Of a stretch of 17,178 nucleotides of DNA, positions 35 to 17,178 are shown one piece after another. Under the pieces are notes generated by a model. It was given only the letters and a program-made list of their open reading frames with translations. It was not told the DNA's origin and ran no database searches. The translations under genes and the position numbers were made by a program. Position 1 is the first letter of the stretch; the number at the start of each line of letters is the position of its first letter. Source of the stretch: Planctomycetota bacterium (GTDB lineage Bacteria > Planctomycetota > SZUA-567 > H5-PLA8); NCBI GenBank assembly GCA_045863855.1, contig BTVV01000131.1:1-17178 (forward strand). The letters run 5' to 3'.

Positions 35-1189
35 TCAAGGCGGAATTCCGAAACGCTTGCGCTTTTCCTTGAGATAATAGACATAATCCTCCAGTCGAAC
101 ATCCGGTGGGCAGCGGTGATCCACGTGCGGAAGAAAGCCGCCTTGTTCGACCAGGGGCTGCAGACGGTCCAGTTCGGCGGCAATGGCTCTCTTTCCTTTG
201 AGTAGCTGCATTTTGTCCACACCTCCGCAAAGGAGAATATCTTTGCCGAATCGCTTTCTAAGCGCGACGGGGTCGCTTCCCGCGTGAACTTCCAAGGGAA
301 ACATCACATTCACGCCAACTTCAAGCCACATAGGCGCAAGCATGTTTATGTCGCCATCGCAATCCACCAGTACGACATCCACACCGTACTTGCGCAACAA
401 ACTCGTGATCCTCTGATAGCGCGGCACCATCATGCTCCTAAAGTCGGCGGGCGATATCATGGGACCGTCGTTGAAGCACATATCCTCCCAGAAGTGCGCG
501 AAATCGAATTCCAGCAAGGGGAGCACCTTTTCCATGACCGAGCACACGAGCACAGTGATATGCTCCATCATATCTTCGATCAGGCCGGGTTCGTCCTTCA
601 CGGCCATACAGGCATTCTCGAAACCCATCCAGTTTCTAATCCACCCGAATAGACTGCCCACGTTGACACCCAGCGCATAGTCGCGGCGCCTGAATCGGCG
701 CACGCATTCGTCCAGGCGATCGGGCATGCGAAAAGGGTCATGTGGATCGAGTCGCGTCTTGAAAGAGTTCCAGTCTTCCTGCGTTTCGACGGGAAACTTG
801 AGATAATGCGGAATCGTCGAGTGGCCGTCTTTGGGAATCTCGCAAAGTACGCCGCTGCCATCTAGGACGACTCTGGTCTTCTCGCGCTCTTCGATGACTT
901 GTGGCTGAAATCCCGGCCGCATGCCAACGTTTGCCGGAAAGCAGAGCCGTTGCTCAAGGCCGAAATACAATTCGCCTTTGGCAATGGAGTCCACCCAGCA
1001 AGGCAGTCCTTGATCCTGCCAGACGTCGAAATTCTCTTCCCACCAGCCGAATTCGTAATCGGGCAGATGATCCACCGGGGCGCCCTTCCAGAACCGGCGC
1101 CAGCGTTCCCGTGAGTCCAGGGTGCCTTTGCGAGGGATACCGTGGGGACCTTGCAACTCGATGGGTTTCGCGCACGCCGCAGTAGTCAT
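35..1189 (-). CDS. Uroporphyrinogen decarboxylase/MtaA-superfamily protein (putative corrinoid methyltransferase, MT-I type), 384 aa
   Basis: Family motifs SRERW.., KFPVETQEDW, GSLFGWIRNWMGFEN, FWEDMCFNDGPMISP, VDCDG, LCGGVDK and HVDHRCPPDV. Start moved from 1216 to ATG 1189, which has a GAGGAAAGGA RBS. Lacks the HemE MRQAGR motif. Confidence 0.85.
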   Translation of the reverse strand: MTTAACAKPIELQGPHGIPRKGTLDSRERWRRFWKGAPVDHLPDYEFGWWEENFDVWQDQGLPCWVDSIAKGELYFGLEQRLCFPANVGMRPGFQPQVIEEREKTRVVLDGSGVLCEIPKDGHSTIPHYLKFPVETQEDWNSFKTRLDPHDPFRMPDRLDECVRRFRRRDYALGVNVGSLFGWIRNWMGFENACMAVKDEPGLIEDMMEHITVLVCSVMEKVLPLLEFDFAHFWEDMCFNDGPMISPADFRSMMVPRYQRITSLLRKYGVDVVLVDCDGDINMLAPMWLEVGVNVMFPLEVHAGSDPVALRKRFGKDILLCGGVDKMQLLKGKRAIAAELDRLQPLVEQGGFLPHVDHRCPPDVRLEDYVYYLKEKRKRFGIPP

Positions 1190-1209
1190 GAGTGAATCCT
1201 TTCCTCTAA

Positions 1210-1251: not shown

Positions 1252-2301
1252 CTAAGGACCGTCAGCTTCCAGGCTCCCAGAGGGTTCGTCTGCTCTATGT
1301 TCTCGGGCGTACCGTTGCATCGCTCGTAGGTTTTCGACCGGCGTATCCCGAGGCACTTCACATCCCGCGCTTACGATGTAACGGGATCCCGCTTTGCGGT
1401 GGCAAGCTTCGACGGCCCGTTCGATGCCCGCGGGATCTCCATGAAACAACGTACGTACGGGGTCAATGTTGCCGAGCAAGACCTGCCCGGGACCCATGGC
1501 CTTGCGAGCTTCGTTCATGGGTGACAGCGAATCCAGATCCACGACATCGCACCCCAGCGCTCCGAAACGCTTAAGCAGCGAACGTGTCGCGCCACAAACA
1601 TGCAGGCGCACCCGAGCGCCCATAGCCTTGATCGCGTCCACCATTCTTTTCTCGTAAGGCCAAACAAATTCAGCGTACGTGCGGAGGCCGACCAGAGAAG
1701 CCGCCGCGTCGCCGATACCGATCATTTCGGCGCCGGCAAGAATCTGTGCGCGCGCGAAACGAAGCTCTAGGTCCAGCACGAACTCGAACAAATCCGCGAT
1801 GAAGCCGAGATCGTCGTAAAAATCCAACATGATGGAGTTGAGTCCGCGCAGGTCGGCGGCCTGCGCGATGGGGCCTTCGATCCATCCTTCGATCAATTTC
1901 TCCCGCCCCACCTTGCTACGGTAGAGTTCCAAGGCCTGGAGCCGGTTGCGCATACGCGGGCCCTGGTCGGGTTCGGGAACGCGAAGACGGGACAGTTTGC
2001 CTTTGTCGGCCAATAGCGCGCACGACTCGTCCAGAGCCGGCGGCTGGTCGGGGAAGAAGCGGACCTGTGCGCCGCAGTCCGCCGCCTCGCCCGCGGGATC
2101 CGACATCGTGTTGACGTAGTCCACTTCGAAGGATTCGGCGAAGCGCAGTTGCCCATCCACCAGCGCGCGATAATCCGTCGCGTAGGACAGGTACGGAATT
2201 CCGGCCTGTTTGGCGGCGAATGTCATGGATATCGGCATGAAGGGCAGCCGGTCTACCGGTCTACCGTCCAAGGTCGCCAGAATGCGTTCTCGCCCGGTCA
2301 C
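1252..2301 (-). CDS. MtaA/CmuA-type methylcobamide methyltransferase (UroD superfamily) with Zn motif H-x-C...C, 349 aa
   Basis: Motifs TGRERILATLDGRPVDRLP, EAADCGAQVRF, EGPIAQAADLRG, IGIGDAAAS, LHVCG, LLGNIDP and SAGCEVP. GTG start at 2301 has an AAGGAGG RBS and a GTGA overlap with the upstream stop at 2298-2300. Confidence 0.85.
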   Translation of the reverse strand: MTGRERILATLDGRPVDRLPFMPISMTFAAKQAGIPYLSYATDYRALVDGQLRFAESFEVDYVNTMSDPAGEAADCGAQVRFFPDQPPALDESCALLADKGKLSRLRVPEPDQGPRMRNRLQALELYRSKVGREKLIEGWIEGPIAQAADLRGLNSIMLDFYDDLGFIADLFEFVLDLELRFARAQILAGAEMIGIGDAAASLVGLRTYAEFVWPYEKRMVDAIKAMGARVRLHVCGATRSLLKRFGALGCDVVDLDSLSPMNEARKAMGPGQVLLGNIDPVRTLFHGDPAGIERAVEACHRKAGSRYIVSAGCEVPRDTPVENLRAMQRYAREHRADEPSGSLEADGP

Positions 2302-3395
2302 GGTGACCCTCCTTGCGCCAAGCGAGTCGTCGTTGCGCGGCGGCGAGGCGGAGTCCCGTATTCCCGAACGGTGCGATAGAGCGCCAGTATATTGGCTGTG
2401 GGGGTATTGGGCTGAATGTTGTGGCAAGGAGCGCAAATATAGCCGCGGCCTGGAGAGAACAGCTCGATATTCTCAAGCACCTCTTGTCGCACGTCCTCTT
2501 CCGTTCCGAAGGGAAGCGTTTCCTGGTTGTCCACGGCGCCGTGGAACACGGCCCTTTCGCCGAAGTCGCGCGCCAACCCATCCCGCGCCATTCCTTTGCA
2601 CCGCCACTGGATGGGGTTGAGTACGTCCACGCCCAGATCTAGCAGTTCAGGCAACAAAGGACGAATGGCGCCGTCGTCGTGATGGAATACTTTCACGCCG
2701 TAACCGTGAACCAACTCGATCATCTTCGCCATGCGGGGCTTGATGAAGCGGCGAAATGCCGCGGGACTCATCAGGAGAGAATCCTGACTACCCAGATCTT
2801 CGGCGACGTAGATGAAATCAATAAGATCTCCGGCGGCGTCCAATGTGCGCCGTACAATGTCCTCGTGAATGTCGTAGATGATCTGCAAGGCGGTTTCGGC
2901 CAGTTCGGGATGGCTTACGAGATCCTCGAATGCCCGCTCCATTCCGCGCAGGCTGCAGTACAAGAGGAACGGCTCGTAGCTTCCCCCAATTCGCGGATGA
3001 TCGGGCCAGTCTTCGCACGCCTTGCGCACGCCACTGACATCCCACCAAGTCGGGTTAGGCCAAGGGTACGATCGGATCTCCTCCACGGTTCTGGCCTCTC
3101 CCAAGGGATGGGAGACACTTTCTTGGTAAACGCCGATTCCGCCGCCGTAGGCGATAGAAGTCTTTTGTATTCCCCAAACGGAGGTGTGGGCGCGGCCCGG
3201 GCGCGGATCGCGCAGCGCGGCTCCGGCATGTATGGATTTGTCCACCTCCAGCTTGGCCCAAAGCGACCTGGCGTCGGGGCAGTCTAGTTCTCGCAACAGC
3301 CGTTCGGTCACCTCACCTGTCGCCCAGTAGTCCGTGGGAACGCGATCAGGGCGCTCGCCGCTCAGGACCGCCAGCCAGCGTTCTCTCGACGTCAT
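2298..3395 (-). CDS. UroD/MtaA-superfamily protein (putative corrinoid methyltransferase), 365 aa
   Basis: N-terminus MTSRERWLAVLSGERPDRVP, then LRGMERAFEDL, VAEDLGSQDSLLMSP, HHDDG, LNPIQW, FHGAVDNQ and APCHNIQPNTP. ATG 3395 has a GGAGG RBS and an ATGA overlap with the upstream stop. Confidence 0.88.
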   Translation of the reverse strand: MTSRERWLAVLSGERPDRVPTDYWATGEVTERLLRELDCPDARSLWAKLEVDKSIHAGAALRDPRPGRAHTSVWGIQKTSIAYGGGIGVYQESVSHPLGEARTVEEIRSYPWPNPTWWDVSGVRKACEDWPDHPRIGGSYEPFLLYCSLRGMERAFEDLVSHPELAETALQIIYDIHEDIVRRTLDAAGDLIDFIYVAEDLGSQDSLLMSPAAFRRFIKPRMAKMIELVHGYGVKVFHHDDGAIRPLLPELLDLGVDVLNPIQWRCKGMARDGLARDFGERAVFHGAVDNQETLPFGTEEDVRQEVLENIELFSPGRGYICAPCHNIQPNTPTANILALYRTVREYGTPPRRRATTTRLAQGGSP

Positions 3396-4420
3396 GAGGC
3401 TTCCTCCACCGTGTGCTCGTCGGGCCGAACGCCCTCGTGTCTCCAGACGTCGAGCATCCGCTCGTATCGTTCGAGGCGCATGCCTGTGTAGATACAATTG
3501 CTCGTTGAGAAGACATATCCGGGCGAGCGAAGGCCGTGCCGAAGGGCGTACCGGACCGAGTCGAGGCATTCCTCTTCGGCTCCCGTGTCGAGCAGTCCGC
3601 AGTTGACGTTGCCGATCAGGCAGACCCGATCCGACGCCAAGCGGACCAATTCTGCCAAATCCACCCCCCCTTGGGGGTCTAGGGAATGCAGAGCATGCGG
3701 CCGGGCATCCAGAAGGTCGTCGAGGATAGGCATGATGTTGCCGTCGGTATGTTTGATCGTATAGAAGCCCAACTCGCGATACCCTGCCACAAGCTGTTTG
3801 AGATACGGGGTGATGAATTCGCCGAACATCTCGGGTCTGAGAAACGGTCCGGAGTTGAAGCAGTAATCGCTGCACAACCCGAATCCGTCCAGGCCCCCGT
3901 GGTCGCGCATCCGGGCAGCCCGCGCCAGCGCTTCATCCACGCGCTGCTGGGACTCGTCCTTGACCTTGTCGGGTTCCTCGTACAACCGGCAAGCGTATTC
4001 CGTCATGCGGTCGCCATGTGGGATGCTGCTGGTGGCATCGCCATGCATGAGCAGAAAGTACCGTTCGCCTCCGGCCGTTCGCAGTCCGTCCACAAGCCGG
4101 AAAACTTCTTCTTCACCGGACGGATTGGGATGGAGAAAGATCGCGTCGTGCTCGAACCGTTCGGCGACCTGCAGGTAGAGTTCGACCATCTCGCGGCGGT
4201 GCAGGCGGCGCTCCGTTTCGGTCATCTGCAGCCACTGGTCGTACCGCCGTTGCGAGAAATGCAGTTTACCGAACGCCTCCATCGTCAGGAAGAAAACCAA
4301 TTCGAAATGCGGAACTCGCCCGGGCAAACGGCGCCGTTCCAGCGCGGCGACGAAACGTTCGCGCGGCGTGTGCCGGGTTGCTTGCGGGGTGCGCATCCCC
4401 GGTCTTAGTGTTTCGGCCAT
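3392..4420 (-). CDS. UroD/MtaA-superfamily protein (putative corrinoid methyltransferase), about 342 aa
   Basis: Motifs TPRERFVAALERR..GRVP, LCSDYCFNSGPFLRP, KHTDGNIMPILDDLL, HSLDPQGGVD, LIGNVNC and STSNCIYTG. Start is uncertain (4420 or 4396). Confidence 0.85.
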   Translation of the reverse strand: MAETLRPGMRTPQATRHTPRERFVAALERRRLPGRVPHFELVFFLTMEAFGKLHFSQRRYDQWLQMTETERRLHRREMVELYLQVAERFEHDAIFLHPNPSGEEEVFRLVDGLRTAGGERYFLLMHGDATSSIPHGDRMTEYACRLYEEPDKVKDESQQRVDEALARAARMRDHGGLDGFGLCSDYCFNSGPFLRPEMFGEFITPYLKQLVAGYRELGFYTIKHTDGNIMPILDDLLDARPHALHSLDPQGGVDLAELVRLASDRVCLIGNVNCGLLDTGAEEECLDSVRYALRHGLRSPGYVFSTSNCIYTGMRLERYERMLDVWRHEGVRPDEHTVEEAS

Positions 4421-4654: not shown

Positions 4655-5734
4655 TCATTCGTAACGGCCATACCTGTCCACGCAGAACAGCGCATGACGG
4701 TAGGTGGCCAGCGTGACGCCGGGCGGCACGGAGTGATCGGAGTGGTACACGTACCCTCCATGCTCCTTGGCTGCCGTAACCTTCTCGCGAATCTCGCGTT
4801 CCAGTCCCTCGCGATCGTTGGTCTGGAACAGCCGAGCGTCAATATTGCCCATGAAGGAAAGTCGTGAGCCATAGATGGCTTTCAACTCGCGCACGTCCAT
4901 CCCCGCTTTGACTTCCAAGGGCTGGAGGCAGTCGAAACCCGCGTCAAGCAACTCGGGAAGCAGGCCTTTCAGATTTCCGTCGCTGTGGAGAATCACTTCG
5001 CCGCCGGACGCATGGACCAAGCCGCACAGGCGTTTATGGAAAGGCTTCAGGCGCTCGGCGTACTGCTTCGGGGAGACCATGCTGGCGTTCTTGTAGGCGA
5101 TGTCGCCCCAGAACCACGCTCCGTCGAACTCAATGCCCGCCTCACGAAAAGCCGTCCAAGCGTCTTCGATCTGTCGGGTCTGAACGTCGTAGATATCCTG
5201 GATCCATTCTGGGGATTCGACGTAACCCATAAGATGAGCGGCTGGACCCAAAAGCGGCCAAGTGGCTTCAAAGGGCTCACGGCAGGACAGGACGATGTAA
5301 CGGCCTTCCGCGCGCCACTTCCGGTAAGCGCGCGCGCAGGCTTCCCAATGGACGCGGTTTCGATCGAACACGTAGCGCTCGCGAAAAGTCTGGCGCCAGA
5401 TGTCCGGATCTTTCACGGCAAAATCGAGGTGCTCTCCTGTGGTCTGGCTATTCTTGAGTTCGCGAATTGTGGCGCCGTTCGCATCTCGGTACACGATCGA
5501 GCACCCGTCCTCGCTGACTACGGTGCGCGGTAACCGCGCGGTCCAATCGAACGAAAGCACGCGGAGGTCGAAATCGAAGAGATCGTTAAGGTCCGCATCG
5601 GGCGGGGTGCCGGCCTGAGTGCGCAGGTCTCGTGCCGCGTCGCGCCAGAAGTGATCGAAGCGCGGGACGCGGTCTGGTTGGCGTCTGCGCAGCGTTCTCC
5701 GCACGCGCTCACGTGAATCCAGAACGGCGGTCAT
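4655..5734 (-). CDS. UroD/MtaA-superfamily protein (putative corrinoid methyltransferase), 359 aa
   Basis: Motifs SRERVRRTLRRRQPDRVP, FWGDIAYKNASMVSP, LHSDGNL, LQPLEVKAGMD, FMGNID and YHSDHSVPPG. ATG 5734 has an ATGA overlap with the DUF1638 stop and a GGAG RBS. Confidence 0.88.
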   Translation of the reverse strand: MTAVLDSRERVRRTLRRRQPDRVPRFDHFWRDAARDLRTQAGTPPDADLNDLFDFDLRVLSFDWTARLPRTVVSEDGCSIVYRDANGATIRELKNSQTTGEHLDFAVKDPDIWRQTFRERYVFDRNRVHWEACARAYRKWRAEGRYIVLSCREPFEATWPLLGPAAHLMGYVESPEWIQDIYDVQTRQIEDAWTAFREAGIEFDGAWFWGDIAYKNASMVSPKQYAERLKPFHKRLCGLVHASGGEVILHSDGNLKGLLPELLDAGFDCLQPLEVKAGMDVRELKAIYGSRLSFMGNIDARLFQTNDREGLEREIREKVTAAKEHGGYVYHSDHSVPPGVTLATYRHALFCVDRYGRYE

Positions 5735-6504
5735 GAGGATGCTCCATGATCGGGCGCCGCCGGCCGCGCCTCGACGACCCGTTCGTCGTAAGACGGCTGG
5801 AGTGTGCATCCCGGTGCAACGACCAAATACCGGTCGCCGGGCCATTCAGGACCGTCCACCAGACCTTGAAACAAGCTCAATTCGCCGGACCATTCCTCGA
5901 AACCGAGATCTCGCCGCTCCGCCTCCCGGCGCGTATGGGCACGCAGCGACTCGACATCGCCTAACCCTAAATTGATGAAGACTATGCGGCCGTACCGGTC
6001 CTTCCAATGCCCCATCGCTTCCATCAGATACTCGGCATTTTCCTCTCCAAAACGCTCGACGTAGTTCCGGTAATTGGCGTCGCTGGGATGTGCGCCTTTG
6101 ACGCGGGTCGGGAGCGTTTCGATCGAGCGTCGGGCGCGTTCGATCCAACCGCTCGTCAGGTAGTAGCTGCCTGGATGCTCGGCAAACACGCGGGCATAGC
6201 GTTCCTTGGAGCCTAGGAACATCGTTATGCAGTCGTGCGCGCGCGTCACGACCACGGGTGTTCGCCCCGCCCGTACGCCCGCGATGCCGTTATTGCACAA
6301 GCCATAGCCGAGCAGCAGCGCGTCGTAGCCCGCCTCGTCCACCGCGTCGAGACGGCTCTGCAGATCTTGAGCCATGGACGCCGCGCGTTTGTCGTGAAGC
6401 CCTTGCGGCACAAAGATCGCGTCCACCGTATTTGGCGTGCGGGCCAGTGCCGCGCAGAATTCGCGATGGAAGACCTCGCAGGCGATGAGACAGTGACGCG
6501 CCAC
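5731..6504 (-). CDS. DUF1638 domain-containing protein, 257 aa
   Basis: Motifs LIACEVF..E, QGLH, LLGYGLCNNG, HDCITMFLGS and YYLTSGW. GTG start with a GAGGG RBS. The family is typically found beside corrinoid methyltransferase genes. Confidence 0.8.
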   Translation of the reverse strand: MARHCLIACEVFHREFCAALARTPNTVDAIFVPQGLHDKRAASMAQDLQSRLDAVDEAGYDALLLGYGLCNNGIAGVRAGRTPVVVTRAHDCITMFLGSKERYARVFAEHPGSYYLTSGWIERARRSIETLPTRVKGAHPSDANYRNYVERFGEENAEYLMEAMGHWKDRYGRIVFINLGLGDVESLRAHTRREAERRDLGFEEWSGELSLFQGLVDGPEWPGDRYLVVAPGCTLQPSYDERVVEARPAAPDHGASS

Positions 6505-6523: not shown

Positions 6524-7807
6524 TCACGTCTCGCGATGGGCGGGCCGAAGGCCGTAGCCTTCCGCCTCCGGATCCGTCACGAGCCAAGGCATTCGCGCTG
6601 CCGCGACGCGACCGTCGCGTGCCACCCAGCGAATACGGTTCAGCGCGCTCACGTCGCGCTCCAGTGGGCCGTCCACGGCGATGAAATCCGCAGGACGGCC
6701 AGGCGTCAGCTTGCCGCAGGTCTCGCCCAACCCCAGTCCGCTCGCGGCCTGAGCAGTGCCCATGCGCAGCAGATCCGGAGGCTCGATCCCGGCTTCCTGC
6801 ATCAACCGGAGTTCCTGCCACAGCCCGCCGCCGTGACCTACTCCGGGACCGCCCGCATCCGATCCGGGCAGGATGTTCGCACCCAGTCCGTGCGCGAAGC
6901 GGAGCATGCGCGCATGCTCGTCCAGGATCTTTCGCAAGCGTTCGCGAACTTCTGCGCTCCAGCCGCAGCACTCGGCGCGGAGCCACTGTGCATGGACGGG
7001 CGCGAATGTGGGCGTCCACGCCAGCCGTCGCCGCGCCAATTCTTCCATCGTCTTCGCGCCGATGAAGTAGCCGTGTTCGATAAAATCCACTCCTGCTTCC
7101 ACTGCCCGACGCACGCCTTCTTCTCCGCTGGCGTGCGCCGCAATTCGCTTTCCAAGTTCGTGCGCCAACTCGACAGCGGCTTTTAAGTCGTCCGCTTCCC
7201 AGGGGGGAGCGGACGACACGCCGCCCTGTTTGAAGTTGATGATCCCGGTAGCCACCAGCTTGATCAAATGGACGCGCGGATCGGCGCATAGTGCGCGGAC
7301 GCGCCGCAAGAGTTCGGGGCGATCCCGGCACGGGCAGCCGATGAAACGGCCGTACCGGCCTTCCCGATATAGGCCAGGCCCTGAAGCGACCAGGCGAGGC
7401 AGGTCCGCCGCCTCCGAGGTCCACTCGAGTGCCGACAGACTGATGCCCAACGGATCGCCTAAGTCCCGCAGCACGCCGACGCCGGCGTGGAAGGCCTGCG
7501 TGAGACGCTCCCGCGCGCGGGCAAGATCCTCGGGTCCGGCGGCGGTCGCAGGCGATTCGCGCGCCTCCGGGTCCAACGGCCAGGGCTCGAAGTAGAGATG
7601 CACGTGGGCGTCCACTAGAGGAGGCAACACGCGTAATCCGCGCAAGTCGAAGCTTTCTTCCCGCTCTCTCGGGATTTCCTGAAGGGGCCCCACCGAAACG
7701 ATCATGCCCTCCCGAACCTCGATGCGCCGGGGCGCAAACGTGCCGGTTTCCGGATCAAGGACCCGATCGCTGAACACGACGTACGAATTCCGGAGCGGAG
7801 GAGTCAT
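6524..7807 (-). CDS. Metal-dependent amidohydrolase (Xaa-Pro dipeptidase/HutI-like subgroup), 427 aa
   Basis: Motifs FDLRGLRVLPPLVDAHVH (HxH), LRDLG, IKLVATG (candidate carboxy-Lys), AAHA, IEHG, GSDAG and GKLTPGRPADFI. ATG 7807 has an AGGAGG RBS and an ATGA overlap. Confidence 0.88.
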   Translation of the reverse strand: MTPPLRNSYVVFSDRVLDPETGTFAPRRIEVREGMIVSVGPLQEIPREREESFDLRGLRVLPPLVDAHVHLYFEPWPLDPEARESPATAAGPEDLARARERLTQAFHAGVGVLRDLGDPLGISLSALEWTSEAADLPRLVASGPGLYREGRYGRFIGCPCRDRPELLRRVRALCADPRVHLIKLVATGIINFKQGGVSSAPPWEADDLKAAVELAHELGKRIAAHASGEEGVRRAVEAGVDFIEHGYFIGAKTMEELARRRLAWTPTFAPVHAQWLRAECCGWSAEVRERLRKILDEHARMLRFAHGLGANILPGSDAGGPGVGHGGGLWQELRLMQEAGIEPPDLLRMGTAQAASGLGLGETCGKLTPGRPADFIAVDGPLERDVSALNRIRWVARDGRVAAARMPWLVTDPEAEGYGLRPAHRET

Positions 7808-8688
7808 GCGTTCGCTTTGACCTCCTGTGAAGCCGGCGCCGGTTCGCATTGGCGATAGTTGCGTATGAAGTTCGCGCAGTATTCATCACGTCCCGTGCAT
7901 GCATCTGCACCGAGAATCGCCCAGCGCAATTCGGGCAGAGTGGGATCCGTCAATGTGACGTTCATGCCAGAATCCACTGCAAGGACCAGGTACGCCGCAT
8001 TCAAATATTTTCGCATGGGCAGTCCGTAAGCTGCATTGCTGGCGCCCAGTACCACGTTGAGTCCGAGTTCCCGACGCATCCGCCGGCATGCCTCGAATGT
8101 CACTGCAGCCGCGGACGGATCGGTTCCGATGCCAAGGCAGACGGCATCGGCCAACAGGTCGGCCGCGCCAAGTCCGAAAGACTCCGCTCTCTTGAGCATC
8201 CGCTCCACGATCCGTACGCGCCCAGTCGCCTCGGGGGGGATGCCGTTCTCGTCGCAAGCCAGCACGATCACGGCTGCACCGTAGCGGGCCGCCAGTTCGA
8301 GAATCGGGTCGAGCTTACGGGCTTCGCCGTTCGCGGAATTGATCAGCGCACGGCCTGGAAGGAGTTTGAGCGCGGCTTCGAGCGCGGCAGGGGCACCGAA
8401 GTCGAGGGACAACGGCACATCCACCTCCGTGGCAATTCGCTCCACGGCTCGGGGCAGAAGATCCTCCTCGGGAATGGAAGTTCCCACCATATTGACATTG
8501 ACGGCATCCGCGCCGGCATCCACCTGAAGACGCGCGCGGCTCACGACCTCTTCCATGCGTCTTTCTTCCACGGCGCGTTTGACCGCCTTGTAGCCCAGCG
8601 CATTGCAGCGTTCCCCGATTACGCGGGTCGGTTCGTTCGGTCCGATCCGCAATTCCTGGCGCCGTCCCTTCAAAATCAAGGTGTTCAT
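7804..8688 (-). CDS. Pterin-binding (DHPS-fold) methyltetrahydrofolate:corrinoid methyltransferase, AcsE/MetH folate-domain-like (MT-II), 294 aa
   Basis: Motifs VIGERCN, QVDAGAD.VNVN, PLSLD, LINS.NGE, DENGIP and GASNAAYGLP.R..LN match the MetH/AcsE folate-binding domain. ATG 8688 follows GAGGAAAAGG. Confidence 0.85.
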   Translation of the reverse strand: MNTLILKGRRQELRIGPNEPTRVIGERCNALGYKAVKRAVEERRMEEVVSRARLQVDAGADAVNVNMVGTSIPEEDLLPRAVERIATEVDVPLSLDFGAPAALEAALKLLPGRALINSANGEARKLDPILELAARYGAAVIVLACDENGIPPEATGRVRIVERMLKRAESFGLGAADLLADAVCLGIGTDPSAAAVTFEACRRMRRELGLNVVLGASNAAYGLPMRKYLNAAYLVLAVDSGMNVTLTDPTLPELRWAILGADACTGRDEYCANFIRNYRQCEPAPASQEVKANA

Positions 8689-10157: not shown

Positions 10158-10799
10158 TTATGCCGCGCGCAGCGAGGCCTTCAGCTTTTCCGCTCCTTCG
10201 GATGCGTCTCCTGCAAAGAGATCCGCTCCGATCTTCTCGGCGAACTCTTGAGTCACAGGGGCGCCGCCGATCATGATCCTGCCTTGGAATCCAGCCTTTC
10301 GAAGTTCCGCCACCACCTCTTTCATGTTCACCATGGTCGTGGTCAGCAGGGCGGACATGGCCACGGCGTCCGCTTGGCGCTCCAGCGCAGCACTGACGAA
10401 ACGAGAAGGCGAAACGTCAATGCCAAGATCAATCACCTCGAATCCGGCTCCCGTCAGCATGATCGCGACGAGGTTCTTGCCGATATCGTGGAGGTCGCCC
10501 GACACGGTTCCGATGATTACCCGTCCGACTTGGGTAGGCGGGTTCCGGGCCAGATCCTCGCGCAGCACCTCCATCGCCGTCTGCATGGCGCGGGCGGCGA
10601 CCAGAACTTCGGGTATGAAGTACTCTTCGCATCGCATCCGTCGGCCCACTTCTTCCATGCCTGCCAGCAGGCCCTGAGTCAGCAGATCCTTACCCGCCCA
10701 GCCTGCTTTCAGGCCGTCCTCGCACAGCTTGGCGGCGTCTTTGCGCTTTCCATTGAGCACCGCTTCACGAAGTTTTTCTAGGATCCCGGATTCAGTCAT
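10158..10799 (-). CDS. Stand-alone corrinoid (B12-binding) protein, MtaC/MtvC-like, 213 aa
   Basis: Cap domain GLLAGMEEVG..EYFIPEVL, the B12 motif GDLHDIGKNLV (DxHxxG), SALLTTTM and IMIGGAP. Start moved to ATG 10799, which directly follows the poly-G/GAG RBS. Confidence 0.93.
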   Translation of the reverse strand: MTESGILEKLREAVLNGKRKDAAKLCEDGLKAGWAGKDLLTQGLLAGMEEVGRRMRCEEYFIPEVLVAARAMQTAMEVLREDLARNPPTQVGRVIIGTVSGDLHDIGKNLVAIMLTGAGFEVIDLGIDVSPSRFVSAALERQADAVAMSALLTTTMVNMKEVVAELRKAGFQGRIMIGGAPVTQEFAEKIGADLFAGDASEGAEKLKASLRAA

Positions 10800-10807
10800 G
10801 ATGATCT

Positions 10808-10910: not shown

Positions 10911-10991
10911 GTGCCCTACGTGCAGACCCTCCCTGGATTAACTGAAATGGCGCGTGCAGGAGGCGGAACCGCTCAGTGGGCGCGCCAAGTC

Positions 10992-12851
10992 CTACTTGGG
11001 CTCGGGGAAGGCCATGGCGTCGGCGAATACTTCCATGAAGTTTGGTTGAGCAGACAACTCTACATAAGCGGTTCGGCGCGCCCATGATTCTACGCGAGCG
11101 CGCGCCTCAAGGTGCGAAAGGCAGAGTCTGGCGCCCACCCCGGCCGTATTGCCTACGGCTTCCAGTCTGCTCGTATCGAATGCCTCGGGAAACAGTCCGA
11201 TGGTCCGTGCCGATACCGGACGAATGAAGCTGCCAAATCCGCCCGCGATGAGTACGCTACGGACCTCATGAGATTGTACGCCACGTAATAGAAGCGCCAT
11301 GTCTACGGCCGCGCGAACCGCGCCCTTGGCCAGTTGGAGTTCCCGAATGTCGCGCTGGGTGAGGCACAGATCTTTCCGGCCTTCGTGAGTTCGCGCCGCC
11401 TCGACCAGAACGATTCGCCCGCCGTGCTGGTCGTATTGGATACGCCGGGCCAGCGGGTCCGCAAGGCGCGCTTGCGCTTCCTCGGGACGAACAATTCGCC
11501 CCGACGTATCTATTATGCCCGTTTCCAGGAACGCAGCCACACAGTCAATCAGTCCCGTTCCGCAAACTCCGCGCGGAGCCGCGTTGTCGAGAACATGAAA
11601 TTCCAGATCGGCCGAACCCACCGACCATGTCACGCGGTCTATGGCTCCGCTCATCGCCATCATGCCGCAGGAGATCCGAGCGCCTTCGAACGCCGGGCCC
11701 GCAGGTGCCGCGCAGGCCAGCCAACCGTCCCGATTGCCTAGCACGACCTCCCCGTTGGTCCCGACATCCACAAGAAGAGTCAACTCCTCGCGCTCGCAGA
11801 GCCCAGTGGCCAGGAGGCCGGCGGTAATGTCGCCGCCGACATACCCGGCCACGCATGGCAGCAGGTAGAGGCGCGCCTGCGGGTGAAAGGATAGTCCCAG
11901 TTCGGCCGCCTTGAAGGCTCGTGCGCCGGTCCAAGCGGGAGCGAAGGGAAAGACCGTGATGGGATGTGGGTTCACGCCCAGCAGCAGGTGCAGCATGATC
12001 GTGTTCCCGCTTACGACCGCATCGAAGCAGCGGGCTAACGAAACGCCGGCCTGCGCGGCACAGTCCTGGGCGATGGCCTGAAGGCATTGGACGATGAGCG
12101 TCCGCAGTTCGTTTTGGGACAACTCGCTTTTGCTGGCGTATTGCGCGCGCGTGATGACGTCCTGGCCCAGTGCAGCCTGAGGATTCGGGCGGCTGGCCAC
12201 GGCGAGGGTCCGTCCGTGCGAAAGTTCCACCAAGTAGCCAACCACTGTGGTCGTGCCAATGTCGAAGGCCATGCCGTAGGCCGTGCCACAGACGTCACCG
12301 GCCTCCACCGCAAGCAGGTCCGGACCGGCACAGGTGGCCGTAACCTCGAAACCTGATGACCGCAAGGTAATCGGAAGCGCCTGCAGCGTGGGAAGATCTG
12401 CCTGCAGACCTCTCCCTGCGGATCCCAAGCCGCGCTTGAGCCTCTCGAAATCGCCCAAACCGTTGTCTTTCGACGGCGGCTCGAGTCTGCAGTGGTATTG
12501 GCGCACCAGCGCCTGGCCCGATAGGGAAGACTGGGCGCGGCCATCCGTCAGGATGCGCTCCCCGTAGCGCCGCGCCGCCTGCGGAATTTCGACGACGGTA
12601 TTACGATCCAAACGCAGTGCGCAGGAATGCCGGTAGCCTTGTGCAAGCTCAGCGGCGGAAAGGTGTTTCCGGTCGAGCGCGGAAAGCGGAGCATCCCCCT
12701 CTAAGACTCGAACCACGCACTTGTTGCAGGCTCCGAGTCCCCCGCACGAAGACTGGATGTAAACGCCGGCGCCCCAACAGGCCTCGAAGACGGTCTGACC
12801 AGCAGACACGTCAAGCGTTCGCTCTTCGGGCCGAATGCACAATCGAGGCAT
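10992..12851 (-). CDS. ASKHA-domain [2Fe-2S] reductive activator of corrinoid proteins (RACo/AcsV/OdmC-like, DUF4445), 619 aa
   Basis: N-terminal ferredoxin CGGLGACNKC...SC, ASKHA ATPase motifs DIGTTT and DVGTNGE, plus AGPAFEG, GVCGTG, LTQRDIRELQLAKGA, AGGFGS and GNTA. A GGAGG RBS lies 8 nt upstream of ATG 12851. Confidence 0.93.
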   Translation of the reverse strand: MPRLCIRPEERTLDVSAGQTVFEACWGAGVYIQSSCGGLGACNKCVVRVLEGDAPLSALDRKHLSAAELAQGYRHSCALRLDRNTVVEIPQAARRYGERILTDGRAQSSLSGQALVRQYHCRLEPPSKDNGLGDFERLKRGLGSAGRGLQADLPTLQALPITLRSSGFEVTATCAGPDLLAVEAGDVCGTAYGMAFDIGTTTVVGYLVELSHGRTLAVASRPNPQAALGQDVITRAQYASKSELSQNELRTLIVQCLQAIAQDCAAQAGVSLARCFDAVVSGNTIMLHLLLGVNPHPITVFPFAPAWTGARAFKAAELGLSFHPQARLYLLPCVAGYVGGDITAGLLATGLCEREELTLLVDVGTNGEVVLGNRDGWLACAAPAGPAFEGARISCGMMAMSGAIDRVTWSVGSADLEFHVLDNAAPRGVCGTGLIDCVAAFLETGIIDTSGRIVRPEEAQARLADPLARRIQYDQHGGRIVLVEAARTHEGRKDLCLTQRDIRELQLAKGAVRAAVDMALLLRGVQSHEVRSVLIAGGFGSFIRPVSARTIGLFPEAFDTSRLEAVGNTAGVGARLCLSHLEARARVESWARRTAYVELSAQPNFMEVFADAMAFPEPK

Positions 12852-12864
12852 CTTTCATGCCTCC

Positions 12865-12911
12865 ATCGATTCCTGAGTGGAACGACGTCGCGTGAGGACG
12901 AAGGAATCGAT
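12865..12911 (-). promoter_or_regulatory. 5'-UTR stem-loop immediately upstream of the Shine-Dalgarno of the first operon gene
   Basis: Perfect 10-bp inverted repeat ATCGATTCCT (12865-12874) / AGGAATCGAT (12902-12911) with a 27-nt loop, abutting GGAGG (12860-12864, minus strand). Confidence 0.5.
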
Positions 12912-12936
12912 TTCCGTCCGACGCACATTTAAAACC

Positions 12937-12952
12937 TATATATCCATATATA
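12937..12952. promoter_or_regulatory. Palindromic operator candidate TATATAT-CC-ATATATA
   Basis: Perfect 7-bp arms with a 2-nt spacer, overlapping the predicted -10 box. Low complexity weakens the case. Confidence 0.4.
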
Positions 12953-12972
12953 TTCTATTAGGATTATGTCAA
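12945..12972 (-). promoter_or_regulatory. Putative sigma70 promoter of the methyltransferase operon (TTGACA-N16-TATATG)
   Basis: Consensus -35 TTGACA (complement of 12967-12972), a 16-nt spacer, and a 4/6 -10 match (complement of 12945-12950) in an AT-rich patch. Confidence 0.6.
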
Positions 12973-13151
12973 TGGTTTGAGGCCGCCATTCGGGCCATCC
13001 GGTCCCATTCCTTTAGGGGCAAAGCGATTAAAGGACTGGATTTGGGAATTGTCGCCCGTTGTGAGCCGGTGCCGCCAAGGATATTCATAATCAGAAGCAA
13101 GCCGCCTGGGACCGAGCAGATGTATTGCAAACGGCTCGAGAGGAAACCCCC

Positions 13152-14600
13152 ATGATCGGGAATCGCGTGAATGCCGCATGCGCCAGAGTCGGGCTTGTCT
13201 CGGTTGGACACCACACCTACTGGGGGCAGTTCGAAGGCCTCCAGGATGCGATGAGACGAAAGTCCGCGGCCTTGGCCGAGAAGCTGCGGCGCGAAGGCGT
13301 GGAGGTTTTGGATTTCGGGTTAGTGGACGAATCGGTAAGCGGTTGGCGCGCAGCGGAGAAGATCCGGTCAGCGGATGTGGATTTGCTGTTCGTCGGCATG
13401 GTGACGTATGCCACCAGCTCCACCTTTGCGCCGCTGGTGCGCAACCTCGATGTCCCGATCGTGCTGGCCGCGCTGCAGCCCCTCAAGGCCATGAACTACG
13501 ACAAGGCCACGACCTATACGCAGCTTTGTAACGACGACTTCTGCTCGGTGCCGGAGTTCTCGGGCGTTGCACTACGCATGGGCAAGCGCGTCCCCGAAGT
13601 CATCTTGGGAACCATCGATGACGATCCGATCGCAGATCGCGAACTCAAGCGGTGGTGCGCCATCGGTAAGGCGATGGGCGGGCTGCGGCGCGCCCGCCTC
13701 GGCCATTTAGGGCATGTGCTGGAAGCCATGTATGACATGCATACCGATCCTGCGGCCCTGACGGCCGCTTTCGGCTGCCATGTGGCTCAGTGCGAGCCTG
13801 ACGAAATCCTGCGGCATTACAGGAATCCGGATCCCGCCTGCCTCGCGGACAAAAAAAGGCAGATTCTGGACTTCTTCGCGACGCCGGATCCCGTCTCCGA
13901 TCCCGTGACTACCCGACTGACCGACGAAGATCTTCAAACTGCGGCGCGCGCCGCCGTTGCCTTGGAGCGATTTGTCGCCGAAAAAAGCCTGAACGGTCTA
14001 GCTTACTATTATGAGGCCGAACCCGGCAGCGAAATGCGGACGCTCATGACCAATCTCATCGTCGGCAATTCGCTGCTTACCGGTGCGGGCTTTCCCATGT
14101 GCGGCGAATTCGACATCAAGACGTGCGTTGCGATGTTTCTCATGGACCGCTTGGGCATGGGGGGAAGCTTCGCCGAGTTTCACCCGGTGGATTTCGAGCG
14201 GGACACCGTACTGGTAGGGCACGACGGACCGCACCATATTGGGATCGCACAAGGCAAGCCTGCGCTCCGTTCCTTAAAAAAGTACCATGGTAAGCCGGGA
14301 TCCGGAGCGTCCGTTGAGTTTAGCCTCAAGACCGGACCCATAACGATGCTTTCCATCGGCGTCGGCCCCGCGGGGCGTTTCCGCTTCGTGATCGCCGAAG
14401 GCGAAAGCGTGCCCGGCCCGATCCCTCCCACCGGAAACACCAACACACACGGGAAGTTCCGTCCGGACGTTCGAACCTTTCTGAAGCACTGGGCGGCCGC
14501 AGGCCCCACGCATCATTTCGCGCTGGGTATTGGGCACGAGGCAGAAACGCTCGCCGCCATCGCGCGATGGCTGAATCTGGATTGCGAGATCATCCGATGA
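13152..14600 (+). CDS. L-fucose/L-arabinose isomerase family protein, 482 aa (substrate unknown)
   Basis: N-terminus RVGLVSVGHHTYWGQFEGL, with metal/catalytic-type motifs PMCGEFD, FAEFH, GHDGP and GPTHHFALG. ATG 13152 has a GAGAGG RBS. Confidence 0.85.
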   Translation: MIGNRVNAACARVGLVSVGHHTYWGQFEGLQDAMRRKSAALAEKLRREGVEVLDFGLVDESVSGWRAAEKIRSADVDLLFVGMVTYATSSTFAPLVRNLDVPIVLAALQPLKAMNYDKATTYTQLCNDDFCSVPEFSGVALRMGKRVPEVILGTIDDDPIADRELKRWCAIGKAMGGLRRARLGHLGHVLEAMYDMHTDPAALTAAFGCHVAQCEPDEILRHYRNPDPACLADKKRQILDFFATPDPVSDPVTTRLTDEDLQTAARAAVALERFVAEKSLNGLAYYYEAEPGSEMRTLMTNLIVGNSLLTGAGFPMCGEFDIKTCVAMFLMDRLGMGGSFAEFHPVDFERDTVLVGHDGPHHIGIAQGKPALRSLKKYHGKPGSGASVEFSLKTGPITMLSIGVGPAGRFRFVIAEGESVPGPIPPTGNTNTHGKFRPDVRTFLKHWAAAGPTHHFALGIGHEAETLAAIARWLNLDCEIIR

Positions 14601-17178
14601 ACGTTCCATCCAACGCTTCCGATCCGACCGCCGCCGTCGCGCCCCTGCCGCCAGGCGGACCGCGCGAAGACATCGAGCCGCTTCATAACGTCACCCTGGA
14701 AATCAGCCCCAAGCCGTTCGTGCCCAACGACGATGCGAGTGTCGAACGGATCATGTGCGATTTGGCCCGGCAGTGGTGGCCTCTACTTCGGCATGCCCGC
14801 CGCGTCTCCGTGCTCTTCTGGCTGGGAGATGGAACGGACATCCTGGAGTACCGGGGCAGTCTGGGCGACCGAGTCGAATGGGCGAAATGGATGGGGTACG
14901 CTCACACGCCCTACAAGGTAAGCATCGAGGACGATCCCCTGCGCGAGTCCATCGTGACTAGAGGATACCTTTACCGGGAGGACGCTCCCGAGATCACGTA
15001 TGCCGACGTCAAACGCATGGTGGCGGCCATGAAGCGCGCGATCCGCACCGTCGTCGAAGTTCCCGTCGAGGTCGGCATTCCTTTCGATCCCGGAAGCGAG
15101 TTTTCGGTGGCTCCGTTCCGTTACGAGAAGCATCCCGAAATCCTGATCACTGGTGGAGGCGCGATGCGGATGATTGACTGCACCGCGCGCTTGGACCAAG
15201 ACCCTGACTCCTTCGCCGGCTTTCCCGACGGGATTCCCAACGGCTTGCCTTTCGGTACGTTCTTGGGACGCCAGACGCAATGCTACCTCTGCGACTTGGG
15301 GTTCGATTACGTTTGGTTCTCGAACTCGTTCGGATTCGGCCGAAGTCCCTATGCCTGGGGGGCGAAGGGGCAATTTTTCGACGGCGACCGATTTACGAGC
15401 TGCGGCAATCGGGAGCTGGCTGACGCGGTGGCGAGCTTTTGGAAGCTCTTTCGCCTCGAATGCCCCTCGGCCCGCGTCGAAAACCGAGGTACCGACTTCA
15501 GCGCCGGCATGAATCTGGTCAACCATGCCACCGATTACCAGGCCATTTACGCCGCAGCTGGCGACACCACGCCGCAGCCCAATACACCCTGGCCGGCTTT
15601 GACCGGGAATCATGGCATCGCGCTCGCCGGTTGGCTTAGTCAGGTGGCCGGATACGACGGCGAAAGCTTTCCGCTGCGGTTCTATTTATCGGATCCCTGG
15701 TGGTGCAATTCCCCTTGGGTGGATCGCTTCGATCGAAGCCCCCACGACATCTACCTGTCCATGGCCATGTGCCGCGTCGGAGCAGACGGACACGCGCGTC
15801 CCGTCAACGATGTGAAGATCCTGTCGGTGGATACGGCCTGGGGCGAAATTCCGGAGTCATTTCCCGTCGAGGTTTTACCTCATCTCCGGCGCGGCCTAGT
15901 CCGGCGTCCAGATCGAGCGCCGCCCCTGCTATGGGTGTACCCCTTCGAGCCCTATCATCGGTACACCTTCGAGCAAGACCGGCTCGAAGAGGTATTCTTT
16001 GGAGATCTATTCATCCAGGAGGCAGTGAATCGCGGCCTGCCCTTGGGCGGCGTGCTGAATAGCGAGGACTTCGTTCGGGGCATGTGCGGCGACAATCGCA
16101 AGTTTCTGTCTAGCGTGCTCCTATCGCCGGTGCCCGAAGCGGACAGCCTTTGGGAGCGCGCGCTGCTGGATCATATGAACGCCGGAGGCCATGTCCTGGC
16201 CTACGGCCCCTTGGTCCGGGCCTCCGAGCGATTTAAGAAGGCGGCGGGTTTGAAGATTGCGGAAGGCATCTCGGGGCAATTAGCCTTGGATGTTCAAGAC
16301 GAAGATGTCTATCTTCAGCCCGGTCGAAACCGCAGCCCCCATGTAGATCCTTCGGGGATAGACCACGCGTATAAAGCGAGCGAAGTCCAGAGAGTGGAAT
16401 CGACGTCCCACTTGGGACCGCCGCCCATCCTGATTCATGATCCGGTCTTGGCTGCCGGACCGGCATGCGAGGTGGCCGAAGACTCCTGCGAAGTGCTGGC
16501 TCGAATGCGGGACGCGGCCGGCGCGGAACGGGCGGCGGCCACGGTACGCGGGCAGTGGGGCGGCGGTCGACTAGCTTGGGTGCGCGGGTCGCCTTCCGCA
16601 TTGCCCGAAGCGCTGCAAGGCCGCAGCCTGCGCGCGAGGGATCCCAGTCTTGCCTACCCCGGAGAGCATCTGCTCCGGCTGGCGTTGGGACGTTTGGGCT
16701 GGTCCTTCCGTATTCGGCGCTTGCAAGTCGATCCTCGGGCCGCTCACGTGATCGTTTCGCGTCATCGGAACGGCTTTGTCTTCACGGGCCATTCGAACGA
16801 CTCGAACGTAGATATCGGATTGAGCGGTCCGCTCGGCATGCCCGTGACGACGGGCGGCGAGACGGAGTTGGCGAACGGCGCGGCCTGGTTCCGGTGCGAA
16901 CGCTGGTTTCACCGCGATTGCCGGGTTTTCGTCACGCAATGCGACGGGTTACTCTGGCTGAGTCCTACCAGTCCGAAACACTTCCGTTACCGCAACCGCT
17001 GGATGCTGACCGGGTTGAAGGATGCAACCGTGCGTTTCTTTCCTCTCTCCGGTCTGGAAGAGCATACAAACATACTGCTGAATCCGTGCGTCTACTACTA
17101 CACAAGAGGTGAAAGCTATGACGGATCTTGGGTGGAACATCCGCTGGGCCGATTCTGGGAAATGCGGAACGTCTCCGG
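14597..17178 (+). CDS. Large uncharacterised protein (at least 860 aa, 3' truncated by the window), possibly carbohydrate-active
   Basis: ATG 14597 overlaps the isomerase TGA (ATGA). I translated the frame by hand and found no stop to the window end: MNVPSNASDP...VTLEISPKPF...FWLGDGTDILEY...FDPGSEF...FPDGIP..LPFGTFLGRQ...GFDYVWFSNSFGFG...RFYLSDPWWCNSPWVDRFDRSPHDIY...WEMRNVS. Confidence 0.85.
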   Translation, partial: MNVPSNASDPTAAVAPLPPGGPREDIEPLHNVTLEISPKPFVPNDDASVERIMCDLARQWWPLLRHARRVSVLFWLGDGTDILEYRGSLGDRVEWAKWMGYAHTPYKVSIEDDPLRESIVTRGYLYREDAPEITYADVKRMVAAMKRAIRTVVEVPVEVGIPFDPGSEFSVAPFRYEKHPEILITGGGAMRMIDCTARLDQDPDSFAGFPDGIPNGLPFGTFLGRQTQCYLCDLGFDYVWFSNSFGFGRSPYAWGAKGQFFDGDRFTSCGNRELADAVASFWKLFRLECPSARVENRGTDFSAGMNLVNHATDYQAIYAAAGDTTPQPNTPWPALTGNHGIALAGWLSQVAGYDGESFPLRFYLSDPWWCNSPWVDRFDRSPHDIYLSMAMCRVGADGHARPVNDVKILSVDTAWGEIPESFPVEVLPHLRRGLVRRPDRAPPLLWVYPFEPYHRYTFEQDRLEEVFFGDLFIQEAVNRGLPLGGVLNSEDFVRGMCGDNRKFLSSVLLSPVPEADSLWERALLDHMNAGGHVLAYGPLVRASERFKKAAGLKIAEGISGQLALDVQDEDVYLQPGRNRSPHVDPSGIDHAYKASEVQRVESTSHLGPPPILIHDPVLAAGPACEVAEDSCEVLARMRDAAGAERAAATVRGQWGGGRLAWVRGSPSALPEALQGRSLRARDPSLAYPGEHLLRLALGRLGWSFRIRRLQVDPRAAHVIVSRHRNGFVFTGHSNDSNVDIGLSGPLGMPVTTGGETELANGAAWFRCERWFHRDCRVFVTQCDGLLWLSPTSPKHFRYRNRWMLTGLKDATVRFFPLSGLEEHTNILLNPCVYYYTRGESYDGSWVEHPLGRFWEMRNVS

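Follow-up and report, generated by a model that had tools for sequence, protein, structure and literature searches.

Three-component, corrinoid-dependent O-demethylases are known from Acetobacterium dehalogenans (OdmA-D), Moorella (MtvABC), Desulfitobacterium hafniense and Methermicoccus (MtoABCD), and MtaB is the precedent for attack of Co(I) on an aliphatic C-O bond with activation by zinc. O-methyl sugars occur in many glycans of plants, algae and microbes, and aldose-ketose isomerisation requires a free C2 hydroxyl; to our knowledge, removal of a methyl group from a sugar has been described only for oxygen-dependent cytochrome P450. These enzymes are the 6-O-methyl-D-galactose demethylases of marine Bacteroidota, as presented in the relevant part of PMC6292453. 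The sections of PMC10418091 on related clusters mention OdmB and VdmB, and Kountz and Balskus describe there the type 1 mlp clusters, mostly of Firmicutes, in which several MtaA-like Mlp genes stand with a corrinoid protein and Ram/RACE; a methyl-sulfur or methyl-selenide metabolism is proposed for them, and no tetrahydrofolate (THF) methyltransferase belongs to the clusters as those sections give them. Anaerobic O-demethylation of methoxylated micropollutants in wastewater-impacted marine sediments is reported in the portion of 10.64898/2026.01.06.697959 on which we draw. A full-text search, with subscription journals outside its reach, found no paper on corrinoid-dependent sugar demethylation. 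Here we analyse a stretch of 17,178 bases (the window), one complete contig (C131) of the Planctomycetota metagenome-assembled genome (MAG) G000, in which a corrinoid methyl-transfer operon stands head-to-head with a sugar isomerase and a large protein that we call Big.

The window holds all parts of a three-component corrinoid methyltransferase system, together with an activator and a methylene-THF reductase (MTHFR), in one tight run on the minus strand. Scans with Pfam and NCBIfam models give eleven genes in this run, from five UroD paralogs to the RACo-type activator (Table 1); they include a corrinoid protein, a methyltransferase I (MT-I) of the UroD superfamily (at the level of the fold only), a pterin-binding methyltransferase II (MT-II) and an activator of the RACo/RamA type. 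With refined starts, neighbouring genes are spaced by -46 to 64 bp, apart from two wider gaps, of 234 bp between UroD5 and UroD4 and of 192 bp between RACo and the corrinoid protein. The reading that we put forward, tentatively and with confidence a little below even, is that this corrinoid system and a sixth UroD-fold gene, which together enclose the isomerase and Big, would strip a sugar or small glycoside of O-methyl groups independently of oxygen.

Table 1. Features of the window, with their positions and the profile matches on which the assignments rest.
Feature	Position	Strand	Basis and remarks
UroD1, divergent UroD-fold paralog, predicted MT-I	35..1189	-	PF01208 32.1 bits, cut-off 23.9; no NCBIfam match
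UroD2, MtaA/CmuA-like paralog	1252..2307	-	PF01208 200.5 bits
UroD3, divergent UroD-fold paralog	2298..3395	-	PF01208 100.6 bits; start moved to ATG 3395
UroD4, divergent UroD-fold paralog	3392..4420	-	PF01208 65 bits
UroD5, divergent UroD-fold paralog	4655..5737	-	PF01208 61.9 bits
DUF1638 protein	5731..6504	-	PF07796 121.2 bits
Amidohydrolase-superfamily metallohydrolase	6524..7849	-	PF01979 89.5 bits
Pterin-binding methyltransferase, predicted methyl-corrinoid:tetrahydrofolate methyltransferase (MT-II)	7804..8688	-	PF00809 74.2 bits
Methylene-THF reductase (MTHFR), N-terminal DUF5981	8705..10093	-	PF12225 84.9 bits, PF02219 39.8 bits
MtaC/MtgC-type corrinoid protein	10158..10799	-	PF02310 97.8 bits, PF02607 68.6 bits
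RACo-type reductive activator (2Fe-2S + ASKHA)	10992..12851	-	PF14574 254.2 bits, PF17651, PF17650, PF00111, Fer2
Divergent intergenic region, 297 bp	12852..13148		between RACo start and isomerase start
AraA/FucI-superfamily aldose-ketose isomerase	13149..14600	+	PF11762 36 bits (cut-off 25); Arabinose_Iso_C / Fucose_iso_C
Big, predicted cytoplasmic glycoside-hydrolase-like protein, unnamed family	14597..17178	+	~867 aa; contig end cuts ~7 residues before its end

The same machinery is found nowhere else in the draft genome (6.93 Mb in 287 contigs, 63.8% G+C, 94% complete). A search with PF01208 found only the five window genes, one with PF02607 found only the window corrinoid protein and a 1192-aa MetH-type frame, and RACo has a single match genome-wide. 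All six UroD-fold genes found in G000, the sole corrinoid protein (besides MetH) and the sole RACo thus lie at one locus. This arrangement stands out beside genomes of wider relatives, in which corrinoid proteins of the MtaC type number just 1-3 and RACo genes 0-2 alongside 18-85 URO-D matches, so that many dispersed UroD-fold enzymes appear to share one carrier; the genus of G000 has the same hub-and-spoke parts gathered at one locus. URO-D matches above the Pfam cut-off number 85 in G041 (Lentisphaerae), 52 in G036 (a Planctomycetota MAG from another family of the same class), 35 in G042 (Brocadiia) and 18 in G043 (Verrucomicrobiota), and in G042 two high-scoring MtaA-like genes adjoin a corrinoid protein. 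First-look candidate counts suggest similar URO-D expansions in several other relatives. A separate observation from G041 (L246:6886-9501, on G041:C476) is an 871-aa fusion of MTHFR, DUF5981 and a pterin-binding domain, which has a xylose-isomerase-like TIM-barrel gene on one side and a LacI-family regulator on the other.

The sixth UroD-fold gene lies just past the end of the contig. The genus has two further species with nearly closed genomes, G002 with proteins ~90-98% identical to those of the window and G001 with ~66-82%, and in both a gene of 405-424 aa follows Big directly on the same strand, in two forms that are 74% identical. The G001 form passes the Pfam URO-D model (31.9 bits, cut-off 23.9), and the form shared by G000 and G002 has no Pfam match at E<=1. 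The G000 copy is the first gene of contig C84 (C84:19-1290) and is 99% identical to that of G002, on whose genome C131 and C84 map in one orientation, with 129 bp between the end of the former and the start of the latter; by synteny, then, a sixth, very divergent UroD-fold gene follows Big. A structural model built from seven orthologs is poor (predicted local distance difference test score, pLDDT, 61), and among its Foldseek hits the top 25 are without exception UroD or MtaA chains; the MtaA zinc ligands are lacking. Because of this gene, the isomerase and Big sit inside the cluster, with UroD-fold genes on both sides. The coupling of the isomerase to Big noted in the initial annotation stands, and the plus-strand unit extends beyond the window, given the UroD-fold gene that follows in G001 and G002. 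Three of the five other genomes with an ortholog of this gene carry it in sugar-type runs (ThuA with GFO/MocA; ThuA with RhaT; AraC with a sugar-type ABC transporter), and two do not. In G001, genes for IS66-type and rve-type transposases lie just beyond it (L016:4652-8627).

The whole head-to-head layout is kept in both G001 and G002, a conservation among close kin; the closest named relatives of the window proteins are MAGs labelled Planctomycetota. Beyond the left window end, the next gene in G002 encodes a DUF488-hemerythrin fusion, and downstream of the locus (L014:804-2441, L014:3690-5526) lie a ScdA/hemerythrin gene and genes for a Crp-type regulator and for a fusion of a di-haem cytochrome c with an ethylbenzene-dehydrogenase-like domain. 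These cytochrome, Crp and hemerythrin genes suggest that the organism is probably no strict fermenter. The window, or DNA nearly identical to it, is present in samples of bioreactors, wastewater, sludge, sediment, soil, aquaculture and groundwater from 13 studies.

The five UroD paralogs of the window are only 15-25% identical to one another, and none reaches the curated NCBIfam cut-off for MtaA, MtbA or HemE. UroD2 is the most MtaA-like: it aligns end to end with the MtaA structure 4ay7 (E 2.3e-18), retains the thiol-type zinc motif, H-x-C and a later Cys in register with 4ay7, which we take to be the zinc ligands of MtaA, and scores 138.8 bits with TIGR01463 (MtaA/CmuA), below the cut-off of 235.4, the other paralogs scoring at most 49 bits. 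At the same site UroD3-5 have H-x-D and UroD1 has D-x-D (D-C-D), the third position being His or Asn. The top score of any paralog with the HemE model TIGR01464 is 67 bits, against a cut-off of 302.95. The sole match of UroD3 among PDB sequences is again 4ay7 (E 1.3e-11), and UroD4 has a 68% identical ortholog in G036:C8, adjoining another UroD gene. The open reading frame (ORF) 2298-3875 on the minus strand (525 aa), listed in the initial annotation, overlaps UroD4 by ~480 bases in another frame and is open in both sister genomes. It is too long: since the URO-D match starts at ORF residue 292 and ATG 3395, the likely start, lies behind a GGAGGA box, we take UroD3 as 2298-3395. An over-long UroD3 could come out of automatic annotation of this ORF.

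The remaining minus-strand genes outline a route for the methyl group. The corrinoid protein scores 182.4 bits with TIGR02370, below the cut-off of 215.3, and contains DxHxxG as DLHDIG (residues 102-107). For the pterin-binding methyltransferase the top model is NF005719 (methyltetrahydrofolate:corrinoid/iron-sulfur protein methyltransferase), with 209.6 bits and a cut-off of 259; for the amidohydrolase it is Xaa-Pro dipeptidase, with 140 bits and a cut-off of 500. The idea that the methyl group goes to folate, proposed in the initial annotation, is borne out as a prediction by the methyl-corrinoid:THF-type methyltransferase and MTHFR beside the corrinoid protein and RACo. Neither formyl-THF synthetase (FTHFS) nor acetyl-CoA synthase (ACS) was found in the 94%-complete genome, which makes methylotrophy of the acetogen type unlikely; the benefit to the host would presumably be one-carbon (C1) units and the demethylated, unblocked product.

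The two strands diverge from a gap of 297 bp, in agreement with the ~300 bp first estimated between operon and isomerase. An AT-rich block at ~12935-12990, mid-way in this region, is partly kept in G001 in the alignment of G000, G002 and G001, though its surroundings are not, and may be a shared operator or promoter element; a sigma-70 scan found no sigma-70-like site in 10800-13300, and the window contains no Rfam family. The isomerase matches AraA structures distantly (E 6.7e-08); aligned to 4r1o, it has residues in register with the Glu, Glu, His and His of AraA, which we take to be catalytic (Glu) and metal-binding (His), and with the AraA model NF002795 it scores 42.1 bits against a cut-off of 622. 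The initial description of this enzyme as divergent is not upheld: its family is large, with 65-70% identity between members from different phyla. Among 8000 scored candidates, 7226 are relatives at E<=0.001, and the best 120, at 65-97% identity, come from Verrucomicrobiota, Lentisphaeria, Armatimonadota, Sumerlaeota and Acidobacteriota and from one actinobacterium. Its stop and the start of Big share four bases, ATGA, and Big has neither a Pfam nor an NCBIfam match, in line with the coupling to a large unassigned protein noted at the outset.

Big belongs to a widespread unnamed family. Its modelled fold has three domains, a TIM barrel, an alpha/beta (GATase-like) domain and a beta-sandwich, and is predicted to be glycoside-hydrolase (GH)-like, resembling GH42 and GH35. 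No Pfam family matches at E<=0.01, hence not Glyco_hydro_42 either, and a profile of 28 homologs found 0 matches at E<=10 among PDB sequences. The invariant acidic residues are E168, E181, D202, D366, D376, D384 and D412. After barrel strand 4 the sequence reads S-N-S, without the Asn-Glu pair that is the motif of clan GH-A. The GH112 phosphorylases (Lact_bio_phlase) appeared as a lead in a language-model Atlas (score 0.92, 162 shared features); they are not prominent among the fold-search hits listed and give no Pfam match. Judged by eye, Big and most homologs from the Planctomycetes-Verrucomicrobia-Chlamydiae (PVC) group lack a signal-peptide-like N-terminus. By the same inspection, Bacteroidota and some other homologs (L100, P0038, P0054, P0066, P0117) have one, and lie in SusC/SusD polysaccharide utilisation loci (PULs).

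Outside the genus, it is a pairing of Big with one particular UroD subfamily that recurs. In G036 a GDSL-domain protein, Big, the isomerase, a UroD gene and a short-chain dehydrogenase/reductase gene lie on one strand, and the 54-55% identical orthologs of this UroD protein in G042 and G041 are exactly the Big-adjacent ones, the other UroD matches to it in G041/G042 being at most 38% identical. Orthology matters here, since with 52, 35 and 85 URO-D matches in G036, G042 and G041 some UroD gene would lie near Big by chance in about 1 of 6 cases. A metagenome scan with the three orthologs gave 80 loci, 30 of them at no less than 40% identity and most of them short; of the 12 with at least 3 kb of upstream sequence, 5 have Big as the immediately preceding gene on the same strand, and one further short contig has the 3' end of a Big gene upstream of the UroD ortholog. 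The isomerase is present in four metagenome loci, and L145 has the order AraC-Big-UroD-isomerase-GDSL with gaps of 10-23 bp; L154, one of the loci with Big upstream, is not independent, because its Pfam rows are identical to those of the G041 locus. In all, three genomes, from two phyla, and further metagenome contigs have the subfamily next to Big. Where MtaA has its zinc ligands, members of the subfamily read H-C-C-G with a His further on, and their N-terminal motif resembles that of MtaA. More distant relatives of the subfamily, at 26-34% identity, have a corrinoid protein as neighbour in 7 of the other 50 metagenome loci, and many weaker relatives form tandem UroD pairs. At L146 and L148, the subfamily occurs amid four or five ~900-aa GH123-like genes. 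Identity of this subfamily with the gene behind Big in our genus was considered and is not supported (hhalign probability 4%).

On these data a path from glycoside to folate can be drawn. Big, having no signal peptide, would cut an imported glycoside in the cytoplasm. Candidates for the next step are the product of the gene behind Big and a subset of UroD1, 3, 4 and 5: one or more of these UroD-fold enzymes would bind the methylated sugar, with the ether oxygen polarised at a metal site, and the methyl group would pass to the single corrinoid protein in its Co(I) form. The pterin-binding methyltransferase would then hand the group to THF, the resulting methyl-THF would be oxidised by MTHFR and enter the C1 pool as methylene-THF, and RACo would re-reduce oxidised cobalt with ATP. 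The freed aldose would finally be converted to a ketose by the isomerase. We infer three things in this scheme: the use of the corrinoid protein by the UroD-fold enzymes, the methylated sugar as donor, and the order of steps.

A considerable number of observations weigh against this proposal, and they concern its chemistry, the gene content, the comparative record and expression. An alkoxide is a much poorer leaving group than a phenolate, and the window has no sugar transporter, kinase or esterase. The cluster of G001 (L017:1571-3007, L017:9513-14999) contains an MttB-superfamily gene (243.7 bits) and at least 4 extra UroD genes; this gene and the thiol-type zinc motif of UroD2 indicate that the hub is not sugar-specific, and for the same two reasons the notion that all five paralogs act on sugars, as first proposed, is not supported. 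The cluster probably handles several methyl donors as a hub, some of them other than sugars. The gene behind Big has 60-66% identical orthologs in five related genomes, none of them beside Big, and the Big-adjacent subfamily has no ortholog in G000 (0 matches at E<=1e-20) and is present in 1 of 41 relatives, namely G036, so that no phylogenetic-profile argument is possible.

The survey of Big neighbourhoods, which covered 80 loci from other species (the best 80 of at least 542), points the same way. The isomerase lies within 10 kb of Big in 48 of the 80, a match to a window UroD in 3, a corrinoid protein in 1 and a weak RACo-like match in 1; a re-search of the loci with the two Big-linked UroD types added one weak match only. 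A PUL of Dyadobacter fermentans, one of the cultured Bacteroidota with such loci, has the order AraC-MFS-isomerase-SusC-SusD-Big-GDSL esterase, with no UroD and no oxygenase in view, and esterases (GDSL, BD-FAE) and AraC or IclR regulators recur at other Big loci. From these PULs and recurring neighbours, Big, isomerase and esterase form a widespread module that usually has no need of UroD. The expectation that isomerase and Big would recur beside UroD/corrinoid clusters in unrelated genomes is therefore borne out in part: the genus layout is kept and the orthologous Big-UroD pair recurs, and full corrinoid clusters do not (corrinoid protein at 1 of 80).

A general enrichment of glycan-type neighbours around UroD genes was also considered, in G041, and dropped because the control was flat. 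A glycan-type gene, by a list fixed after the UroD loci had been seen and before the control, lies within 3 genes at 12 of the 19 UroD loci scored, against 11 of 19 places in the control. The former are the 20 top-scoring divergent UroD loci less L113 (a gene call without UroD), with 88 of 101 neighbour ORFs scanned and 13 left out (the Big gene, one cut ORF and 11 of <=112 aa); the latter are 20 places on the same contigs well away from UroD stretches less L241 (another UroD), with 107 of 111 ORFs scanned. G041 is so rich in glycan-type genes that general proximity is uninformative there, and the orthology-based result alone survives.

The expression hints come from assembled RNA contigs of 3 libraries in 2 studies, of a strain with ~4.5% differences, in which starts, strands and levels are unreadable; word depth of contigs is a poor measure, and DNA carry-over into RNA libraries is possible. 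One piece runs from position 19 to ~10,500-10,800, from UroD1 through the corrinoid protein, at a word depth of 55-105, and contigs of three runs extend ~3 kb past the left window end (loose end at position 19) into sequence outside the window. RACo is a separate contig at a depth of 6-16, with the break in the gap between RACo and the corrinoid protein, and the isomerase and Big appear as pieces of 250-1150 bases at a depth of 2-13; run X20 covers 9 of 30 bins, at a depth below 2. A 5-20-fold step in depth within 17 kb is hard to explain by DNA, a hint that transcription of the main operon starts separately, within the gap between RACo and the corrinoid protein, and is out of step with the sugar unit; such a contrast does not look like tight co-regulation of the two.

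A rival reading is a general methyl-salvage hub for non-sugar donors, such as methoxylated aromatics, quaternary or other methylamines and methylthiols; the isomerase and Big would adjoin it for reasons that do not involve the five paralogs, and at most the gene behind Big would borrow the corrinoid protein. We consider this possible, with a confidence clearly short of even. The combination of UroD MT-I, corrinoid protein, MT-II and activator is the layout of phenyl methyl ether O-demethylases as covered in part of PMC10418091; the top NCBIfam model of the corrinoid protein, below its cut-off, is the glycine-betaine type MtgC, and the MttB-family gene of G001 and the MtaA-type motif of UroD2 suit such donors as well. 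The strain occurs in bioreactor, wastewater and sludge, and 10.64898/2026.01.06.697959 reports O-demethylation of micropollutants for wastewater-impacted sediments. The far higher RNA-contig word depth of the hub than of the isomerase and Big, and the 77 of 80 Big loci elsewhere without a UroD match, also fit. A hub of this kind leaves aside, however, that UroD-fold genes enclose the isomerase and Big in all three species of the genus and that an orthologous Big-UroD pair recurs in other lineages; and with no FTHFS/ACS found and no aromatic-degradation genes in view, the gain from demethylated aromatics is unclear.

The Big-linked UroD-fold proteins might alternatively carry out non-corrinoid chemistry, for instance a metal-dependent or cofactor-free reaction on a sugar acid, and lie near the corrinoid hub of this genus by chance. 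The superfamily is founded on a decarboxylation that needs no cofactor, the gene behind Big is without the MtaA zinc ligands (its G000/G002 form even without a Pfam match at E<=1), and no corrinoid protein stands next to the Big-adjacent subfamily in the loci examined. We regard this as unlikely, given that the subfamily has H-C-C-G and the later His at the zinc-ligand positions along with the MtaA-like N-terminal motif, that genomes with it hold 1-3 corrinoid proteins and, in 2 of 3 searched, RACo elsewhere in the genome, that 7 metagenome loci pair a distant relative of the subfamily with a corrinoid protein, and that every UroD-fold gene found in G000 shares one locus with the sole corrinoid protein. 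Very improbable, in our view, is operation in reverse, with methyl groups passing from methyl-THF through the corrinoid protein to an acceptor such as a sugar or thiol in the manner of MetH or MtaA: corrinoid methyl transfers are reversible, UroD2 resembles thiol-methylating MT2 enzymes and MTHFR could supply methyl-THF, but the partner genes are catabolic in type (isomerase and hydrolase-like protein here, esterases and sugar-type regulators in relatives) and known sugar O-methylation uses S-adenosylmethionine.

If the proposed sugar demethylation is true, the locus names candidate enzymes for an oxygen-independent sugar O-demethylation, could explain the large UroD-family expansions in Lentisphaerae, Planctomycetota and Verrucomicrobiota, and would add a route for glycan-bound methyl groups into the folate pool in sediments, sludge and guts. 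In its widest form, which we offer only as a possibility and with more doubt than confidence, PVC bacteria of anoxic habitats would have a hitherto undescribed, oxygen-independent, B12-dependent pathway of sugar demethylation in which a radiation of UroD-fold enzymes (18-85 per genome, 6 here), each for a different methylated sugar or glycoside, delivers methyl groups to one shared corrinoid protein and thence to folate, the whole machine being gathered in one locus in the genus of G000. With six UroD-fold genes, one corrinoid protein and one activator at a single locus, this genus is a handy test case. New here are the GH-like fold and family of Big, the sixth UroD-fold gene, the uniqueness of the locus in its genome and the orthologous Big-UroD pair in other lineages.

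Compared with described enzymes, Big shares the TIM barrel, alpha/beta and beta-sandwich architecture of the GH42 beta-galactosidases and alpha-L-arabinopyranosidases and of GH164 and GH35-like proteins, and differs from them in having no sequence match in Pfam, NCBIfam or the PDB and in the S-N-S after strand 4. The isomerase aligns with L-arabinose isomerase AraA, with the Glu/Glu/His/His positions filled, at a score far below the AraA cut-off. Relative to MtaA/MtaB/MtaC of Methanosarcina, UroD2 aligns over its full length with MtaA (4ay7) and keeps H-x-C...C, and the corrinoid protein is of the MtaC type, whereas the window has no MtaB homolog, the predicted methyl acceptor is THF rather than coenzyme M, and UroD2 falls below the MtaA and MtbA cut-offs. 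With the type 1 mlp clusters, so far as the sections cited describe them, the window shares several MtaA-like genes, a corrinoid protein and an activator; its THF methyltransferase and MTHFR set it apart from a cluster type given there without a THF methyltransferase.

With the three-component O-demethylases the window shares UroD MT-I paralogs, an MtaC-type corrinoid protein with DxHxxG, a pterin-binding MT-II and an ATP-dependent activator in one cluster. Their known substrates are phenyl methyl ethers, and their hosts are acetogens, organohalide respirers and methanogens that live on the methyl group; the window, in contrast, belongs to a planctomycete in which no FTHFS/ACS was found, its cluster encloses an isomerase and a GH-like protein, and its paralogs are 15-25% identical to one another and below every curated NCBIfam cut-off. 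With the P450 demethylases, finally, as far as they are described in the part of the source cited above, the common ground is the proposed job, removal of a methyl ether that blocks sugar breakdown, encoded in loci for glycan use. The proteins are unrelated, and where the P450 enzymes depend on oxygen and release the methyl carbon in oxidised form, the system of the window would work independently of oxygen and keep the methyl group on folate.

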